Origin: Escherichia coli | GTDB taxonomy: Bacteria; Pseudomonadota; Gammaproteobacteria; Enterobacterales; Enterobacteriaceae | Assembly: GCF_003334765.1 (NCBI RefSeq) | Contig: NZ_QOWT01000062.1 | Reading direction: 5' to 3' (one strand) | Length of the DNA stretch: 6,186 bases | Shown: positions 1 through 6,186 of the stretch, one piece after another | Numbering within the stretch: the stretch's first letter is position 1 | Layout of the letters: each line of letters opens with the position of its first letter | Made by a program: the position numbers and the translations under genes | Notes under the pieces: generated by a model | The model's database searches: none | What the model saw: only the letters and a program-made list of their open reading frames with translations | Told to the model about the DNA's origin: nothing

Positions 1-171
1 CCGGATTATACGGTGAAGGTGAGAAAGTGGTTTTGTGTGATGTGTGACGAAGATTATGAGGGGGAAAAGTGCTGCCCACGCTGCGGTACCGGGGTATACA
101 GCAGGGCGTGGGGGCGGCAGGAGGTGCCGTCGGAAGATGCCAGGGCTGATAATCCGTTACAGAGGCTGTAA
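1..171 (+). CDS. 3' end of an unidentified ORF (5' end outside window) with a C-terminal Cys-rich zinc-ribbon-like motif
   Basis: Frame 1 is open from base 1 to TAA at 169-171. Translation: ...PDYTVKVRKWFCVMCDEDYEGEKCCPRCGTGVYSRAWGRQEVPSEDARADNPLQRL. Cys spacing CxxC-x8-CCxxC resembles a zinc ribbon. The stop overlaps the next ATG (TAATG). Absent from the ORF track because it has no start codon in the window. Family not recognised. Confidence 0.3.
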   Translation, partial: PDYTVKVRKWFCVMCDEDYEGEKCCPRCGTGVYSRAWGRQEVPSEDARADNPLQRL

Positions 172-407
172 TGGTTGCCTCCGGAGCAGTTTGCGGTGAT
201 GCCTTTCCCGGGAATGGATTGCCGGTGCGGGGACTGTGGAGCTTAATTCCGGTGTTGGTGGCCTTTCCGTTGATTTTATGCCAACAGCCCCCTGTGACTG
301 ACAGGCTGCCTCGTCATTCCATTCGTATCTCCAGTAACAGGGGGTTGTATTGTATTTTATTGTGCCGGTTCAGGTGTGCGTTTCCCGGCGCGTCTGCACC
401 GGCTTAA
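171..407 (+). CDS. hypothetical small protein (78 aa), stop/start-coupled to the upstream ORF
   Basis: ORF track 171..407. ATG overlaps the upstream stop (TAATG). No recognisable motif; GC-rich DNA can give spurious ORFs of this size. Ends 27 bp before the IS66 left inverted repeat. Confidence 0.25.
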   Translation: MVASGAVCGDAFPGNGLPVRGLWSLIPVLVAFPLILCQQPPVTDRLPRHSIRISSNRGLYCILLCRFRCAFPGASAPA

Positions 408-433
408 CCAAATTCAACAGGGATAAAATAGTG

Positions 434-459
434 GTAAGCGTACAGCCTGAACCGTCTGG
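434..459 (+). repeat. IS66 left terminal inverted repeat (IRL)
   Basis: First 13 bp (434-446) are a perfect inverted match to 2710-2722. Further inward the match is imperfect, so the inner boundary is approximate. Confidence 0.7.
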
Positions 460-504
460 TCAGAATCTGACGAATTAGACAAAGTGGTGTCCACCAAATA
501 AGTA

Positions 505-906
505 GTGGGAACCAAAGTGTCAGATATGCAGAAAAATGTGACTCCCGGCAGGCGAAAAGGCTGCCCTAATTATCCTCCCGAATTTAAACAGCTGCTTGTT
601 GCTGCCTCCTGTGAACCCGGGATATCCATCTCAAAACTTGCTCTTGAAAATGGCATTAACGCCAATCTGTTGTTCAAATGGCGACAACAATGGCGCGAGG
701 GAAAGCTGCTATTACCTTCTTCAGAGAGCCCCCAGCTACTTCCTGTGACTCTCGATGCAACTGCCGAACAGCCAGAATCGCTCGCAGAGGCCCCGGAAAC
801 CCTCAGTATCAGCTGTGAGGTAACGTTCCGGCACGGGACGCTCCGCTTCAATGGCAATGTCAGCGAAAAGCTCCTGACTCTGCTGATACAGGAACTGAAG
901 CGATGA
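505..906 (+). CDS. tnpA: IS66-family accessory protein TnpA (Orf1)
   Basis: ORF track 505..906. Position as first ORF inside the IS66 IRL and coupling to tnpB fit IS66 Orf1. The track start at 505 is a GTG; an in-frame ATG at 526 (MQKNVTPGRRKG...) is an alternative start. No strong Shine-Dalgarno for either. Confidence 0.8.
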   Translation: MGTKVSDMQKNVTPGRRKGCPNYPPEFKQLLVAASCEPGISISKLALENGINANLLFKWRQQWREGKLLLPSSESPQLLPVTLDATAEQPESLAEAPETLSISCEVTFRHGTLRFNGNVSEKLLTLLIQELKR

Positions 907-1250
907 TCCCGTTACCTTCCGGGACCAAAATTTGGCTGGTTGCCGGTATCACCGATATGAGAAATAGCTTCAACGGCCTGGCTGCGAAAGTACAAACGGC
1001 GCTGAAAGACGATCCCATGTCCGGCCATATTTTCATTTTCCGGGGCCGCAGCGGCAGTCAGGTTAAACTGCTGTGGTCCACCGGTGACGGACTGTGCCTC
1101 CTGACCAAACGGCTGGAGCGTGGGCGCTTCGCCTGGCCGTCAGCCCGTGATGGCAAAGTGTTCCTTACGCAGGCGCAGCTGGCGATGCTGCTGGAAGGTA
1201 TCGACTGGCGACAGCCCAAGCGGCTGCTGACCTCCCTGACCATGCTGTAA
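903..1250 (+). CDS. tnpB: IS66-family TnpB (Orf2)
   Basis: ORF track 903..1250 (115 aa). ATGA overlap with the tnpA stop at 903-906 implies translational coupling. Size and sequence (MIPLPSGTKIWLVAGITDMRNSFNGLAAKV...) are typical of IS66 Orf2 as I recall it. Confidence 0.85.
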   Translation: MIPLPSGTKIWLVAGITDMRNSFNGLAAKVQTALKDDPMSGHIFIFRGRSGSQVKLLWSTGDGLCLLTKRLERGRFAWPSARDGKVFLTQAQLAMLLEGIDWRQPKRLLTSLTML

Positions 1251-1278
1251 ATCTCTTTATCCTGGTTGTCACAGAATA

Positions 1279-1298
1279 AGCCCGGTAAAATACGGGCT
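1279..1298 (+). promoter_or_regulatory. hairpin (6-bp stem AGCCCG / CGGGCT, 8-nt loop) ending one base before the tnpC start codon
   Basis: Seen: AGCCCG(1279-1284) GTAAAATA CGGGCT(1293-1298) then T, then ATG at 1300. It occupies the position where a ribosome-binding site would be; no canonical Shine-Dalgarno is visible. A regulatory role is inference. Confidence 0.3.
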
Positions 1299-1299
1299 T

Positions 1300-2685
1300 A
1301 TGAACGACATCTCTTCTGACGACATCTTCCTGCTGAAACAGCGCCTGGCCGAACAGGAAGCGCTGATCCACGCCCTGCAGGAAAAGCTGAGCAACCGGGA
1401 GCGCGAAATAGACCATCTGCAGGCGCAGCTGGATAAACTCCGCCGGATGAACTTCGGCAGTCGTTCCGAAAAAGCCTCCCGCCGTATCGCACAAATGGAA
1501 GCCGATCTGAACCGGCTTCAGAAAGAGAGCGATACGCTGACTGGTAGGGTGTATGACCCGGCAGTACAGCGTCCGTTGCGTCAGACCCGCACCCGTAAGC
1601 CGTTCCCTGAATCACTACCCCGTGACGAAAAGCGACTGTTGCCTGCGGCGCCGTGCTGCCCGAACTGCGGCGGTTCACTGAGCTATCTGGGCGAGGATAC
1701 CGCCGAACAGCTGGAGTTGATGCGTAGCGCCTTCCGGGTTATCCGGACGGTACGGGAAAAACATGCCTGTACTCAGTGCGATGCCATCGTGCAGGCACCT
1801 GCACCTTCGCGGCCCATCGAGCGGGGTATCGCCGGACCGGGGCTGCTGGCCCGCGTGCTGACCTCGAAGTATGCAGAGCACACCCCGCTGTATTGCCAGT
1901 CAGAAATATACGGCCGGCAAGGTGTGGAGCTGAGCCGTTCACTGCTGTCGGGCTGGGTGGATGCATGCTGCCGGCTGCTGTCTCCGCTGGAAGAGGCGCT
2001 TCATGGCTATGTCATGACTGACGGCAAACTCCATGCCGATGATACCCCGGTCCAGGTACTGCTGCCGGGTAATAAGAAGACGAAGACCGGGCGGTTGTGG
2101 GCGTATGTTCGTGATGACCGCAATGCCGGGTCAGCGTTGGCACCTGCAGTGTGGTTCGCTTACAGCCCGGACAGAAAAGGCATCCATCCGCAGACTCATC
2201 TTGCTTGCTTCAGCGGTGTGCTGCAAGCGGATGCGTACGCCGGGTTCAACGAGCTGTATCGCAATGGTGGGATAACGGAAGCTGCCTGCTGGGCTCATGC
2301 CCGCCGAAAGATCCACGATGTGCACGTCCGCATCCCGTCAGCACTGACGGAAGAAGCCCTGGAGCAGATCGGTCAGTTGTACGCCATAGAGGCGGATATA
2401 AGGGGAATGCCGGCAGAGCAGCGGCTTGCTGAACGTCAGCGAAAAACGAAACCGCTGTTGAAATCCCTGGAAAGCTGGTTGCGTGAAAAGATGAAGACCC
2501 TGTTCTTCGGCTCTGGCCATGGTGGTGAGCGGGGAGCGCTACTGTACAGCCTGATCGGGACGTGCAAACTGAATGACGTGGATCCAGAAAGCTACCTTCG
2601 CCATGTGCCTGGCGTCATAGCAGACTGGCCGGTCAACCGGGTCAGCGAACTGCTTCCGTGGCGCATAGCACTGCCAGCTGAATAA
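1300..2685 (+). CDS. tnpC: IS66-family transposase TnpC (Orf3)
   Basis: ORF track 1300..2685 (461 aa), the longest ORF in the element. N-terminal heptad-like, leucine-rich region (LLKQRLAEQEALIHALQEKL...), a CxxC...CxxC zinc-finger motif (CCPNCGG ... CTQCD), and an acidic-residue-rich core consistent with the IS66 transposase. Ends 12 bp before the IRR region. Confidence 0.88.
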   Translation: MNDISSDDIFLLKQRLAEQEALIHALQEKLSNREREIDHLQAQLDKLRRMNFGSRSEKASRRIAQMEADLNRLQKESDTLTGRVYDPAVQRPLRQTRTRKPFPESLPRDEKRLLPAAPCCPNCGGSLSYLGEDTAEQLELMRSAFRVIRTVREKHACTQCDAIVQAPAPSRPIERGIAGPGLLARVLTSKYAEHTPLYCQSEIYGRQGVELSRSLLSGWVDACCRLLSPLEEALHGYVMTDGKLHADDTPVQVLLPGNKKTKTGRLWAYVRDDRNAGSALAPAVWFAYSPDRKGIHPQTHLACFSGVLQADAYAGFNELYRNGGITEAACWAHARRKIHDVHVRIPSALTEEALEQIGQLYAIEADIRGMPAEQRLAERQRKTKPLLKSLESWLREKMKTLFFGSGHGGERGALLYSLIGTCKLNDVDPESYLRHVPGVIADWPVNRVSELLPWRIALPAE

Positions 2686-2696
2686 CACATCCCCGT

Positions 2697-2722
2697 CAAT
2701 ACGGCCCTCGCTGTACGCTTAC
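2697..2722 (-). repeat. IS66 right terminal inverted repeat (IRR)
   Basis: 2710-2722 GCTGTACGCTTAC is the exact reverse complement of 434-446. Inner boundary approximate. Confidence 0.7.
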
Positions 2723-2923
2723 TTTTGTTCGGACTGCTTATGGCCTTTTTCCACTGGTGGCGCAGGAAAGTTAACCGGCTGCCACCATGGGATGACGTGT
2801 AAACCGTGCAGGCATGTTTTCACGTGGTGACGCTTTCATTGGGGGTCTACGCCGGAACCCCAATATTGTTCACATACATGAATTTGAAAAACTAAGCGAT
2901 ACTGCTGTCCGTACCTTATAAAC

Positions 2924-4297
2924 TTATTTCAACGCTTCCGGCAGCGTCACAATCCACAGTTCACTGTCAGACTCCGGTTTCTCCAGTGGCTTCACTCTGA
3001 GGGTCGTTTCAACCTGCTTGTCGTCAAGCGTCAGCTTTCCTTCCGCGTTCACCCGATAATCCTTGAATGTCTTGCCCTCGACCGGATGTTGCATCGCCAC
3101 CTTCACGCCAAAGTCGTTATCGTTCGCCACCGCCAGCGTTTTGCTGTCGATCAGCGCCAACCCTTCAGCCTTCTCCTGCTGCCAGCCCAAGGAGCGCAGA
3201 TCAACAACCTGCGTTTTCTGCGCAAGGGTAATGCCGCGCTGTGACAGGGTTTTCTCATCATCAAACTCCGGATACTCACCCGGCTTGTCGAAGCCTGACA
3301 GGTCGCTCGCCTTATTGAGATCGACCTCGTAAATCAGGTTACGCATTCTGTTGTTTTTATCTCTTCCCTGTTCGATCAGCAGGATGTGCTGGTTATCGAG
3401 CGCCACGATGTCTCCGATTTTAGCGTCGCTGTTTTTGCTGTAGGCCGCGCTGTCGATAGGATAACCGTACATCGCGGTTTTTCCGCTTGCCGGATCGAAG
3501 CTCACCAGACGCGTAAACAGCGCCTTTTTCTTGCTCTTAGTGTCGATATCCAGCGTACTTTGCACGGCGACAATAATACGCCCGTCCGGCATACGGGTGA
3601 GGCCTTCAAAGCCGCGGTTCGCCTGACGCCATTTGAGGATATTTGGCAAACCGCCCGCAATCGCTTTTTCCCCTTCCGCCGCCTGCGGACCGTGGATTGC
3701 CAGGATTTTCCCTTTACTGTCGATGTTAATCAGGAACGGGCCATACTCATCGCACAGCCAGTAACCTCCTTTACCATCCGGAGTGATCCCTTCCGTATCC
3801 AGCCCGCGATTATCCCCCTTCAGTCTATGTAACGTGTCGCTGAAGGCCACTTCATTGGTGGAGCCAATCACGTCGCTTGCCAGCGGCAGACCGTTGATCG
3901 CGCCTTTATCGTCATGCAGAGGACGGGGATCGATGGCCTCCGCTTTGCCGTTTTGTACACGAATCGTCATCAGCAGCGGCGCGAAATCTGGCGTAACGAA
4001 AATTTTAGTTTCGTTTTTCCCCTCTTTCGGTGAATCCGCGTTCGGACCGCGATCGGTAATGGTTGCGAATGTCAGGGCATCGCCCTGTTTACCGGTGAAC
4101 AGCAGGCCAGAACCTATCCCAACCGGAAGGCCGTTCGGGAATGCACTGGCAAATGCGCCGGCATAGTTCACGTGCGTGCCTTCTGGAAAACTGACGACAT
4201 AGCGCTCAGCCGTAGGTTGTGCCGCCAGGGCAGAGAAAGAGAGCGTACAACCGATTAGCACGGGAATAATTTTTCTTTTCATATTGTTAGCATCCAT
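2924..4297 (-). CDS. secreted or lipoprotein-type beta-propeller protein, phytase-like / SdiA-regulated-domain family (function unknown)
   Basis: ORF track 2924..4297 - (457 aa). N-terminus MDANNMKRKIIPVLIGCTLSFSALAAQP has a signal peptide with a lipobox-like LIGC; an alternative start is the internal Met giving 2924..4282. Motifs ANRGFEGLT and AEGLA resemble the GFEGL and AEG(V)A motifs I recall in E. coli YjiK (SdiA-regulated / phytase-like beta-propeller clan). Family assignment is from memory, not a search. Confidence 0.7.
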   Translation of the reverse strand: MDANNMKRKIIPVLIGCTLSFSALAAQPTAERYVVSFPEGTHVNYAGAFASAFPNGLPVGIGSGLLFTGKQGDALTFATITDRGPNADSPKEGKNETKIFVTPDFAPLLMTIRVQNGKAEAIDPRPLHDDKGAINGLPLASDVIGSTNEVAFSDTLHRLKGDNRGLDTEGITPDGKGGYWLCDEYGPFLINIDSKGKILAIHGPQAAEGEKAIAGGLPNILKWRQANRGFEGLTRMPDGRIIVAVQSTLDIDTKSKKKALFTRLVSFDPASGKTAMYGYPIDSAAYSKNSDAKIGDIVALDNQHILLIEQGRDKNNRMRNLIYEVDLNKASDLSGFDKPGEYPEFDDEKTLSQRGITLAQKTQVVDLRSLGWQQEKAEGLALIDSKTLAVANDNDFGVKVAMQHPVEGKTFKDYRVNAEGKLTLDDKQVETTLRVKPLEKPESDSELWIVTLPEALK

Positions 4298-4397
4298 AAA
4301 GTGAAGATCACACTACACCATAAAGAAGAAACGAGTCAGGAAAATGACATCGAATGGCAACATGCGCGGGCCTGAGGCCAAAGAAATGTAAAACACT

Positions 4398-4415
4398 GTT
4401 GTTATTTGTAACAAC
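4398..4415. promoter_or_regulatory. perfect 7-bp inverted repeat GTTGTTA-TTTG-TAACAAC, candidate operator upstream of the beta-propeller gene
   Basis: Seen: GTTGTTA (4398-4404) and TAACAAC (4409-4415) are exact reverse complements with a 4-bp spacer. It lies about 100-115 bp upstream of the minus-strand gene start (4297 or 4282) in an AT-rich intergenic region. Confidence 0.3.
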
Positions 4416-4545
4416 GGAAACATTTACGGAAATTATTTGTCTTTCTTCGTGATCAAAAATGCTGTGTCTTGTTGGATTGGAGTGATGAGGGCTGCGTTTA
4501 GGAAACGCCCTATATTGTACGGTTGCATTATCGCGGTAGGGGTAA

Positions 4546-4695
4546 TGCACGTGTCAGTATGATGAGCTGACCACACTCACGTGGGTGGACTGGTATAACA
4601 ATCGACGATTGCTGGAAAGGCAGGGCCATATCCCACCGGCAGAAGCAGAAAAAGCTTATTATGCTTCCATCGGAAACGATGATCTGGCAGCCTGA
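4546..4695 (+). pseudogene. C-terminal remnant of an rve/DDE-type (IS3-like) transposase, 5' portion missing
   Basis: Open frame with no start codon translates to CTCQYDELTTLTWVDWYNNRRLLERQGHIPPAEAEKAYYASIGNDDLAA*, stop at 4693-4695. The W-x-x-YNNRR...PAE pattern matches the conserved C-terminal end of integrase-core transposases (IS3 family OrfB). No upstream transposase body is present. Confidence 0.5.
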
Positions 4696-5014
4696 GTTCA
4701 CAGATAAAACACTCTCCAGGAAACCCGGGGCGGTTCAATTGCTGGATAAGATCATAACGATACACCGGGTTAAACAGGTGGTCACTGCTTCACTGAAGCT
4801 GCGTGATTATGATGGTCAGGTAGCAGAAGCTATGCCCATGATACAAAAATGACGAAAGCCGAAATGTCTGAAAGCGTGTGTATTACCTGAAAATATGACC
4901 GGCTCCGGGGTACGTAACCGATTCAACAAAGCCAATCGATATTACAAAACGAGAGGAACTATATATTTCGTTTTCAGATAAGACTCCTTGAGAGATTATC
5001 TTTTATGTAAAATC

Positions 5015-5308
5015 TCAAATATCACCTGATGTAATGTCAATGATAATATTAAGTGCGCTCTGAACAACATCTTTCTTGGTGTGATTAACATCTGACAAAA
5101 AGAACATCAGCTTCTTTATTATGTTCTTGTTGTTTATTATTTCACGCTCACAGAATAAAGCGTTGACTGCCTCTTCTATGACATTTCTCTCGTAAAAAAA
5201 TTGAGAGTTAGCTTCATATAAAATATTGGCCAATTTTTCACCAAAAACCATATTATAATAATCACTGTGCATCTTTCTCCCCCAGGGTTCAGTCAATAAT
5301 TTTACCAT
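5015..5308 (-). CDS. hypothetical protein (97 aa) in an AT-rich segment
   Basis: ORF track 5015..5308 -. Complete ORF with an in-frame stop two codons upstream of the ATG. Codon usage is very AT-rich, in contrast to the IS66 region. No recognisable domain. Confidence 0.4.
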   Translation of the reverse strand: MVKLLTEPWGRKMHSDYYNMVFGEKLANILYEANSQFFYERNVIEEAVNALFCEREIINNKNIIKKLMFFLSDVNHTKKDVVQSALNIIIDITSGDI

Positions 5309-5610
5309 GCCTAATTATGACAGGTGTAACAAGCATATTTTGCTATATAAATAAAATACATAATACTGATTATTGTAAGAACAGGAAGCAGACTAATGGT
5401 TTTTTTTGTGAGCACATTCCTTCTTATGTAGGAAGAGGCTGTATTATATTCAGTCAACTCTTTTTTACTAAAAACATTATCTATGCCATCAAAGTTGCCT
5501 GCTAGCTAATTTTTAGGATATCGCCTTGTCGTGGATTATGCACTCTAAACATGTAGAAGGTATTCATTACAAATACACAGACGGCCATCTTTTGTAAAAT
5601 GGATGCCGTT

Positions 5611-5727
5611 TTAAGTGAGATTCTGATTTTCAAATTGTTCCGGACTGAGACCGCCACACCAACTGTACCATCGCCAGCGATTGTAATCGCACTCGATATA
5701 ATTAAGTAAGTTTGCTGATTTTGCTGT
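5611..5727 (-). pseudogene. C-terminal remnant of an IS3-family transposase (OrfB-like), degraded
   Basis: Minus-strand open frame without a start translates to [38 protein letters not shown], stop at 5611-5613 and upstream stop at 5728-5730. The YIE-x-YNR...[10 protein letters not shown] pattern matches IS3-family OrfB C-termini as I recall them. Only about 30 aa of homology is retained. Confidence 0.5.
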
Positions 5728-6017
5728 TTACTGCGACAGATGTAAAGCTGTGGTGATTCATGCAGACTAAGTTCACGGACTCCGGCAGTAACACCGATGC
5801 ATTCTGCAAGCTTCAGATCTTAACTACGAAATTCATGCGAATGGTGTTTACGTTTTTTTACTGGTTGAAACTGTTTTGTCTTGTGAGTCACCTCTGACTG
5901 AGAGTTTACTCACTTAGCCGCGTGTCCACTATTGCTGGGTAAGATCACAACACTTTAAAATGCCCTATATAGGGTTAACCAGTAATTATCTGTATGATAG
6001 CTTTGAGTTCGGGAGGA

Positions 6018-6040
6018 GGTAATGACTCCAACTTACTGAT
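6018..6040 (-). repeat. IS1 terminal inverted repeat (insB-proximal end)
   Basis: GGTAATGACTCCAACTTACTGAT differs by one base from the IS1 right inverted repeat as I recall it (GGTAATGACTCCAACTTATTGAT). Confidence 0.88.
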
Positions 6041-6186
6041 AGTGTTTTATGTTCAGATAATGCCCGATGACCTTGTCATGCAACTCCACCGATTTTGAGA
6101 ACGACAGTAACTTCCGTCCCAGCCTTGCCAGATGTTGTCTCAGATTCAGATTATGTCGCTCAATGCGCTGAGTGTAACGCTTGCTG
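6033..6186 (-). CDS. insB: IS1 transposase InsB, C-terminal part (5' end outside window)
   Basis: Codon-by-codon translation of the minus strand from the TAA at 6033-6035 reproduces the InsB C-terminal sequence ...[18 protein letters not shown]. Not in the ORF track because there is no Met in the window. Confidence 0.9.

Follow-up and report, generated by a model that had tools for sequence, protein, structure and literature searches.

An insertion sequence-rich mosaic beside the fec operon in the leuX island of Escherichia coli

A 6,186-bp stretch of Escherichia coli DNA (contig NZ_QOWT01000062.1 of assembly GCF_003334765.1; hereafter the window, meaning the whole stretch analysed at its full length) holds two intact genes among the debris of several insertion sequences (ISs). 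What kind of DNA is this: a part of a plasmid, a part of a chromosomal island, or a mobile unit still able to carry the two genes with it? A first-pass annotation made from the letters alone had proposed a plasmid or genomic-island context. We conclude with high confidence that the window is a piece of a chromosomal genomic island in the position of GI-leuX/KpLE2, lying beyond IS1F from the fecIRABCDE genes, and that it is a decayed IS mosaic rather than a working system.

The very high IS density claimed by that annotation holds up, as IS-derived sequence accounts for 3,184 of the 6,186 bases (51%), in five segments belonging to four families (IS66, IS3, IS5 and IS1). None of the five IS pieces is intact, each being damaged or cut by the window edge, and no IS is present twice within the window. 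The sharp compositional contrast between segments is also real. The GC content is 0.57 in the IS66 element, 0.54 in a phytase-like gene next to it, 0.32 in the segment 4958–5611 and 0.43–0.45 in the terminal IS pieces, with a drop from about 0.55–0.63 to 0.32 around 4950–5550. The initial survey of reading frames and repeats gave an IS66-type unit at 434–2722 with three frames in a row and a long reverse-strand frame at 2924–4297.

Position in the chromosome

The whole window was compared by megablast with 5,426 complete E. coli genomes and with 72,556 PLSDB plasmids, as the first-pass annotation had recommended for finding the replicon of origin. The best matches are E. coli chromosomes, above all that of strain H3, which differs from the window by one base (99.98% identity). 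At least 80% of the window is found in 1,694 of the 5,426 genomes (~31%), nearly always on the chromosome, and a BL21-derived laboratory strain and NCTC86 are among the carriers. The window corresponds to 667450–673635 of H3, where tRNA-Leu (leuX) lies at 644035–644119 and a site-specific integrase gene at 644210–646120, and it is situated 23–29 kb inside a roughly 36-kb island at leuX.

Read from gntP towards leuX, the H3 chromosome carries gntP, fimHGFDCIA, fimE, fimB, nanC, nanM, a truncated nanS and several gene remnants, followed by a CbtA/YeeU toxin-antitoxin pair, an Inovirus Gp2-family gene, two zinc-ribbon genes and then the window. Beyond the window come IS1, ykiE, fecIRABCDE, IS3 remnants, a group II intron, IS30 and further island genes, and finally the integrase gene, leuX and the core genes ahr and yjgR. 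The core flanks of the variable region are ahr/leuX on one side and fim/gntP on the other. The reverse transcriptase/maturase gene of the group II intron is found inside an IS3-family remnant adjoining IS30, ~10 kb beyond fecE (H3 locus sequence 36031–37539; 35463–38637).

GI-leuX has been described as a genomic island with fec, yjhATS, fim, IS elements and phage remnants (PMC4374849). The leuX gene is among the most used tRNA integration sites, and Fec-carrying leuX islands occur in several strains (PMC7545054). The window locus is like the GI-leuX/KpLE2 island in its position between leuX-ahr and nanCM-fim-gntP and in having the same fecIRABCDE-ykiE-IS1F junction. In K-12, however, the fecI-ykiE-IS1F junction continues into yjhU (yjhU-yjhF-yjhG...) beyond IS1F; in the leuX-fim region of K-12 only window positions 6018–6186, the IS1F end, are present (100% identity), and 1–6017 are absent at the locus. 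The window form is an alternative filling of the leuX island.

The locus bears the marks of a tRNA-associated island, namely a junction of tRNA and integrase genes, variable presence between core flanks, and IS content together with deviant composition. No replication, partition or transfer/conjugation genes were found within 20 kb on either side of the window at the H3 chromosomal locus, where the accessory genes nearby are fec, the toxin-antitoxin pair, the integrase and the group II intron. A conserved core region with no accessory genes nearby, which the first-pass annotation had said would speak against its proposal, is not found; the region is chromosomal but is a variable island with accessory genes. 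Of the two contexts it had put forward, the island therefore stands and the virulence plasmid does not: in complete E. coli genomes the phytase-like segment of the window (2800–4500, 1.7 kb) occupies 2,240 chromosomal versus 66 plasmid places (2,306 in all), and it is found on 69 of the 72,556 PLSDB plasmids.

The ISEc8 copy and the other insertion sequence pieces

The IS66-family element, which the first-pass annotation had called intact, is a copy of ISEc8 with a 153-bp in-frame deletion (434–2722, plus strand; 2,289 bp), recognized by alignment, inverted repeats, NCBIfam and Pfam. It consists of the left inverted repeat (434–455), tnpA (526–906), tnpB (903–1250), tnpC (1300–2685) and the right inverted repeat (2701–2722), the repeats being 22 nt long and 82% complementary. 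The NCBIfam models of IS66 TnpA, TnpB and transposase are all matched, in the tnpA-tnpB-tnpC order of a complete element. The window copy is like ISEc8 (the L0013-L0015 genes of enterohaemorrhagic E. coli; 2,442 bp) in its DNA (99.6% identity), in inverted repeats starting GTAAGCG and in its gene layout, while it differs in lacking 153 bp of tnpC and an 8-bp target duplication. Its closest plasmid relatives are 2,442-bp ISEc8 copies with 99.3–99.6% identity, which align in two pieces. A perfect 7-bp stem with an 8-nt loop (AAGCCCG-GTAAAATA-CGGGCTT) is found at 1279–1299 in the tnpB-tnpC spacer, just before the start codon of tnpC, and is part of ISEc8.

The junction of the deletion lies at 2498–2503 (plus strand), as located by pairwise alignment with the ISEc8 of plasmid pPK8275-145kb and by protein block comparison, and the absent stretch sits between two CCTGT repeats in full-length ISEc8. 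TnpC is left with 461 residues versus 512 in the full-length protein, residues 401–451 (51 residues) being gone. The Pfam DDE_Tnp_IS66 match covers only model positions 1–222 of 284, with the C-terminal domain directly after it, and NCBIfam gives the same split, so that a full-length DDE transposase domain is lacking. For a measure of conservation, full-length ISEc8 TnpC was searched against 1.8 billion representative proteins, and 70 full-length relatives (34–52% identity) were aligned. Across these 70 IS66-family transposases D247 is invariant, and D311, C330, H333, R335 and R336 are invariant or nearly so. Inside the deletion fall nine near-invariant residues (A410, Y413, G428, N434, E438, R442, G447, R448 and N450), the DNNxAE block included. 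This block presumably carries the third catalytic acidic residue (E438) of IS66 transposases.

The element also lacks an 8-bp target duplication, its flanks being AAATAGTG (426–433) and TTTTGTTC (2723–2730). Among five full-length ISEc8 copies taken as controls, three have a perfect 8-bp duplication at exactly the same boundaries; the pPK8275 copy itself has none. Directly after ISEc8 starts the C-terminal fragment of a DUF6404-family gene (2725–2802, plus strand; 25 codons, from its translation and the RefSeq pseudogene annotation), which fits a rearrangement at the right end. The plasmid and ST131 copies of the locus have this fragment too, and a complete DUF6404 gene beside orthologues of the phytase-like gene was looked for in Pantoea and Enterobacter and not found. 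Every copy of the locus examined (H3, ST131 and plasmid pB27_2) has the same 153-bp deletion, and the deleted form of ISEc8 was seen in this one sequence context only. The deleted copy is probably unable to transpose on its own.

Both IS3-family remnants reported in the first-pass annotation are there. One is the 3' end of an IS1203/IS629-like element (4564–4754, plus strand), which comprises the last 43 transposase codons and the terminal inverted repeat ...ATTGCTGGATAAGATCA; it is 95–97% identical to the ends of plasmid IS1203-family elements, matches positions 344–369 of 369 in the NCBIfam model transpos_IS3 and is a pseudogene in RefSeq. The other is a relic of IS3 sensu stricto (5612–5947, minus strand), in which the left inverted repeat TGATCTTACCCAGC... 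and the first ~235 bp run into the final ~94 bp of orfB. Against a full IS3-like copy in pB27_2 the alignment splits into two blocks of 89% identity, with 893 bp between them in the plasmid copy and 7 bp in the window, and it ends at the orfB stop codon, the right inverted repeat being missing; the relic is therefore a single IS3 that has lost ~893 bp internally as well as its right end. Its plasmid matches are annotated as IS3.

The inventory of the first-pass annotation was incomplete, since it missed the DUF6404 fragment and two further pieces. One is a diverged IS903-like fragment of the IS5 family (4758–4957, plus strand) with 72–76% identity to the 3' parts of IS903B-family transposase genes, for which RefSeq has an 'IS5/IS1182 family transposase' pseudogene at 4760–4890. 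The other is a fragment (~72 bp; 5948–6018, plus strand; translation HFKMPYIGLTSNYLYDSFEFGRR) of an omptin (OmpT/OmpP-like) protease gene; it shares 95.8% identity with omptin genes on plasmids and lies between the IS3 relic and IS1F. The IS1 copy that it did list is present, though only 168 bp of it (6019–6186, minus strand) lie in the window and the rest is past the edge. This end is 100% identical to K-12 IS1F at the same position relative to fecI, in agreement with the H3 annotation; IS1F runs past the window edge and is followed by ykiE and fecIRABCDE. In K-12 its insB is annotated as broken, and in H3 the element is annotated in three pieces.

These findings bear on the question of mobility. 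If the IS66 element were active, it might together with IS1 form a composite transposon able to mobilize fec or the cargo genes, as could be suspected from the presence of both ISEc8 inverted repeats, the three open reading frames, a tnpC that is not a pseudogene in RefSeq, where it is labelled 'IS66 family transposase', and the IS1-associated part copies on plasmids described below. However, TnpC is deprived of 51 residues with nine near-invariant positions among them, no target duplication surrounds the element, and its deleted form is confined to a single sequence context. IS1F is broken or in pieces by annotation, every other IS piece is without one end or both, and within the window no two functional copies of the same IS bracket any cargo. 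We regard an active composite transposon as very unlikely.

Shorter forms of the block and copies on plasmids

The phytase-like segment is present in 2,263 of the 5,426 genomes and the segment with the second intact gene, an AriR-like gene, in 1,701, which leaves about 560 genomes with a shorter form. In an ST131 chromosome, alignment shows window positions 1–4737 joined to 5910–6186 (junction at 10936–10938 of the ST131 locus), so that this form is without 4738–5909 (1,172 bp) and hence without the AriR-like gene. The breakpoints fall in direct copies of ATTGCTGG(A/G)TAAGATCA at 4736–4754 and 5929–5947, 1.2 kb apart, which are the right end of the IS1203-like element and the left end of IS3. 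We read the ST131 form as a probable deletion between IS3-family terminal repeats. An ST131 form with IS1 abutting 4934, which had been assumed from annotation, was ruled out by the alignment.

A different shortened form is found on plasmids. Plasmid pB27_2 (MOBH/IncHI1B; region 12918–17957) has only window positions 1746–4934, situated between IS1 copies, one of which abuts 4934 and the other of which lies ~315 bp upstream of 1746 with other DNA between. This piece contains the 3' part of tnpC, the DUF6404 fragment, the phytase-like gene, the IS1203-like end and part of the IS903-like fragment, and it is found between IS1 copies on several dozen other E. coli plasmids. Since the plasmid copy already has the 153-bp deletion in tnpC, the arrangement suggests IS1-mediated capture of 1746–4934 from the chromosomal form.

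It might instead be supposed that the window came from a large virulence or resistance plasmid and that the chromosomal copies are secondary. The several dozen plasmids with the IS1-bounded piece, MOBH and IncHI1B types included, could be taken in this sense, and so could the near identity of the omptin fragment to plasmid-borne omptin genes. The distribution is against it, however, in that the phytase-like segment is overwhelmingly chromosomal, as counted above, and that the chromosomal locus has neither replication nor conjugation genes within 20 kb. The plasmid copies, with the tnpC deletion already in place and cut at 1746, point to transfer from chromosome to plasmid. Only three of the 72,556 plasmid records cover at least 80% of the window (two of 655 kb and one of 834 kb), and the few 'plasmid' records with the whole window (655 kb–4.9 Mb) are taken to be mislabelled chromosomal sequence. 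A plasmid origin is already largely refuted, and we give it only a very small chance.

The two intact genes and their place beside fec

The first-pass annotation had set the two non-IS genes aside as accessory cargo of unknown function. They are indeed accessory cargo and can now be named to the family level, as PF13449 and YmgB/AriR-like. The first (2924–4282, minus strand) is an intact gene for a predicted secreted protein of 452 residues assigned by Pfam to PF13449, 'esterase-like activity of phytase' (E = 7.4e-43). The match joins residues 60–396 to model positions 4–284 of 284, that is, to practically the full length of the family. Homologues with 64–89% identity are widespread in Enterobacterales. 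An 89%-identical orthologue in Enterobacter hormaechei stands between yfaZ and yjiA-yjiX-cstA, with no IS nearby and no fec genes (contig region 5044–10848); given such a stand-alone orthologue, the E. coli copy seems to have been captured as a single gene. Some genomes have a glycosyltransferase-8 gene and a Wzy_C gene inserted behind the Enterobacter orthologue. The dN/dS value against this orthologue is 0.095, the gene being under purifying selection, and nearly all matching E. coli records of the segment are at least 99% identical.

In the alignment the N-terminal cysteine of the protein is not conserved, and A20 is invariant and A21 nearly so, which speaks for an ordinary secretory signal rather than that of a lipoprotein. 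The AlphaFold2 model of the protein is a confident one (pLDDT 84, pTM 0.85) and shows a beta-propeller, whose closest folds are a bacterial glutaminyl cyclase and YjiK, both five-bladed propellers, and a nucleotidase, with sequence identity of 11–16% to the structural matches. No phytase, beta-propeller phytase included, was among the best matches of this fold search, and no solved structure detectable by sequence was found for the protein. We infer a periplasmic, probably metal-dependent hydrolase.

The second intact gene (5015–5296, minus strand; RefSeq WP_223349491.1) has a low GC content (33%) and encodes a 93-residue protein matched by Pfam YmgB (PF10798; E = 7e-6, domain on residues 40–96) and, over the whole YmgB chain, by PDB 2oxl (YmgB; E = 0.0016). 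The evidence for membership in the YmgB/AriR family is weak but consistent. The product is like YmgB/AriR of K-12, a biofilm and acid-resistance regulator, in this domain and in the 2oxl alignment, and unlike it in having an extra ~39 N-terminal residues, in the GC content of its gene and in being encoded in an island rather than in the ycgZ-ymgABC cluster.

The remaining parts of the window are minor. Positions 1–171 (plus strand) are the 3' end of a gene for a zinc-ribbon-domain protein (WP_001221615.1 in the H3 RefSeq annotation), open to a stop codon at 169–171, which is part of a prophage-like island module together with Inovirus Gp2-family and zinc-ribbon genes. A 78-codon open frame at 171–407, unannotated in RefSeq, fills most of the 262-bp spacer between this gene and ISEc8. 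No NCBIfam family was found for the phytase-like, AriR-like and zinc-ribbon proteins. A promoter and terminator scan of 2680–5700 gave no excess of sites over shuffles. Even with a permissive threshold, Rfam yielded nothing in the window beyond a sub-threshold match to the small RNA isrJ, at 903–968 on the reverse strand inside tnpB, which was dismissed as chance (22.6 bits, where the gathering score is 37; E = 0.8).

The position of the two genes invites a functional reading, in which the phytase-like protein and the AriR-like regulator are partners of Fec, for instance in releasing iron from phytate complexes, and their linkage is selected. The protein might act by hydrolysing phytate or some other phosphoester by which ferric iron is sequestered, thereby supplying the ferric-citrate transporter. 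The genes do adjoin fec in E. coli, as they do in a Shigella island according to its published gene order, and the selection on the phytase-like gene and its near uniformity in E. coli could be the mark of a maintained role. Yet several dead IS pieces separate the genes from fec, transcription is divergent and no operon is shared. The Enterobacter orthologue has no fec genes beside it, K-12 has a functional fec locus without either gene, and the ST131 form lost the AriR-like gene. Phytase activity is only predicted, and the closest folds are those named above, not a beta-propeller phytase. A selected partnership with Fec is accordingly a far-fetched reading in our estimate, and it is just as improbable that a contribution to iron or phosphate acquisition in the gut is what keeps the PF13449 protein, alone or together with the AriR-like regulator, beside fec. 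If it were true, the block would be a functional nutrient-acquisition module and not a chance mosaic.

The Shigella arrangement is that of the SRL pathogenicity island of Shigella flexneri, in which fec is orf26-33, orf34 is phytase-like (99.78% to an E. coli family protein), orf35-37 are IS66 genes (tnpC/tnpB/tnpA, originally matched to L0015-L0013), orf38 is hypothetical and orf39 belongs to the Inovirus Gp2 family (PMC6980539). The phytase-like gene of the window corresponds to orf34, and the gene order is the same, from fec through the phytase-like gene, IS66 and a hypothetical gene to Inovirus Gp2. The SRL island differs from the window locus in being integrated at serX, and it also has a 16-kb multi-resistance locus. 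The gene order of the window is already published in this island, and nothing in the window is new in kind.

The decayed mosaic in the leuX island is best explained by successive insertions, IS-adjacent deletions and recombination between IS ends, which would have joined unrelated DNA and left two captured genes intact (the PF13449 beta-propeller and the YmgB/AriR-like gene) and the DUF6404 and omptin genes as fragments. The block is probably now inherited passively with the fec region. Several points weigh against this account. The comparison with the SRL island draws on protein matches tabulated in the literature rather than on aligned DNA. The support for E438 as the probable third catalytic residue comes from conservation. 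If the same cell had a full-length ISEc8 elsewhere, this might in principle still work on the deleted copy, whose inverted repeats are intact. The direction of change and the order of events, with ST131 as the derived form, are inferred from the sequences of a few representative loci.

Beyond a tidy annotation the meaning of the window is small. The region is found in thousands of sequenced E. coli genomes. Its tnpC, which looks ordinary in RefSeq, has lost 51 residues with conserved positions, and the element is probably best regarded as defective. From the variants of the block one sees how the neighbourhood of fec is remodelled by short IS terminal repeats and by IS1, and the two intact genes are uncharacterised accessory genes that are common and conserved in E. 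coli.

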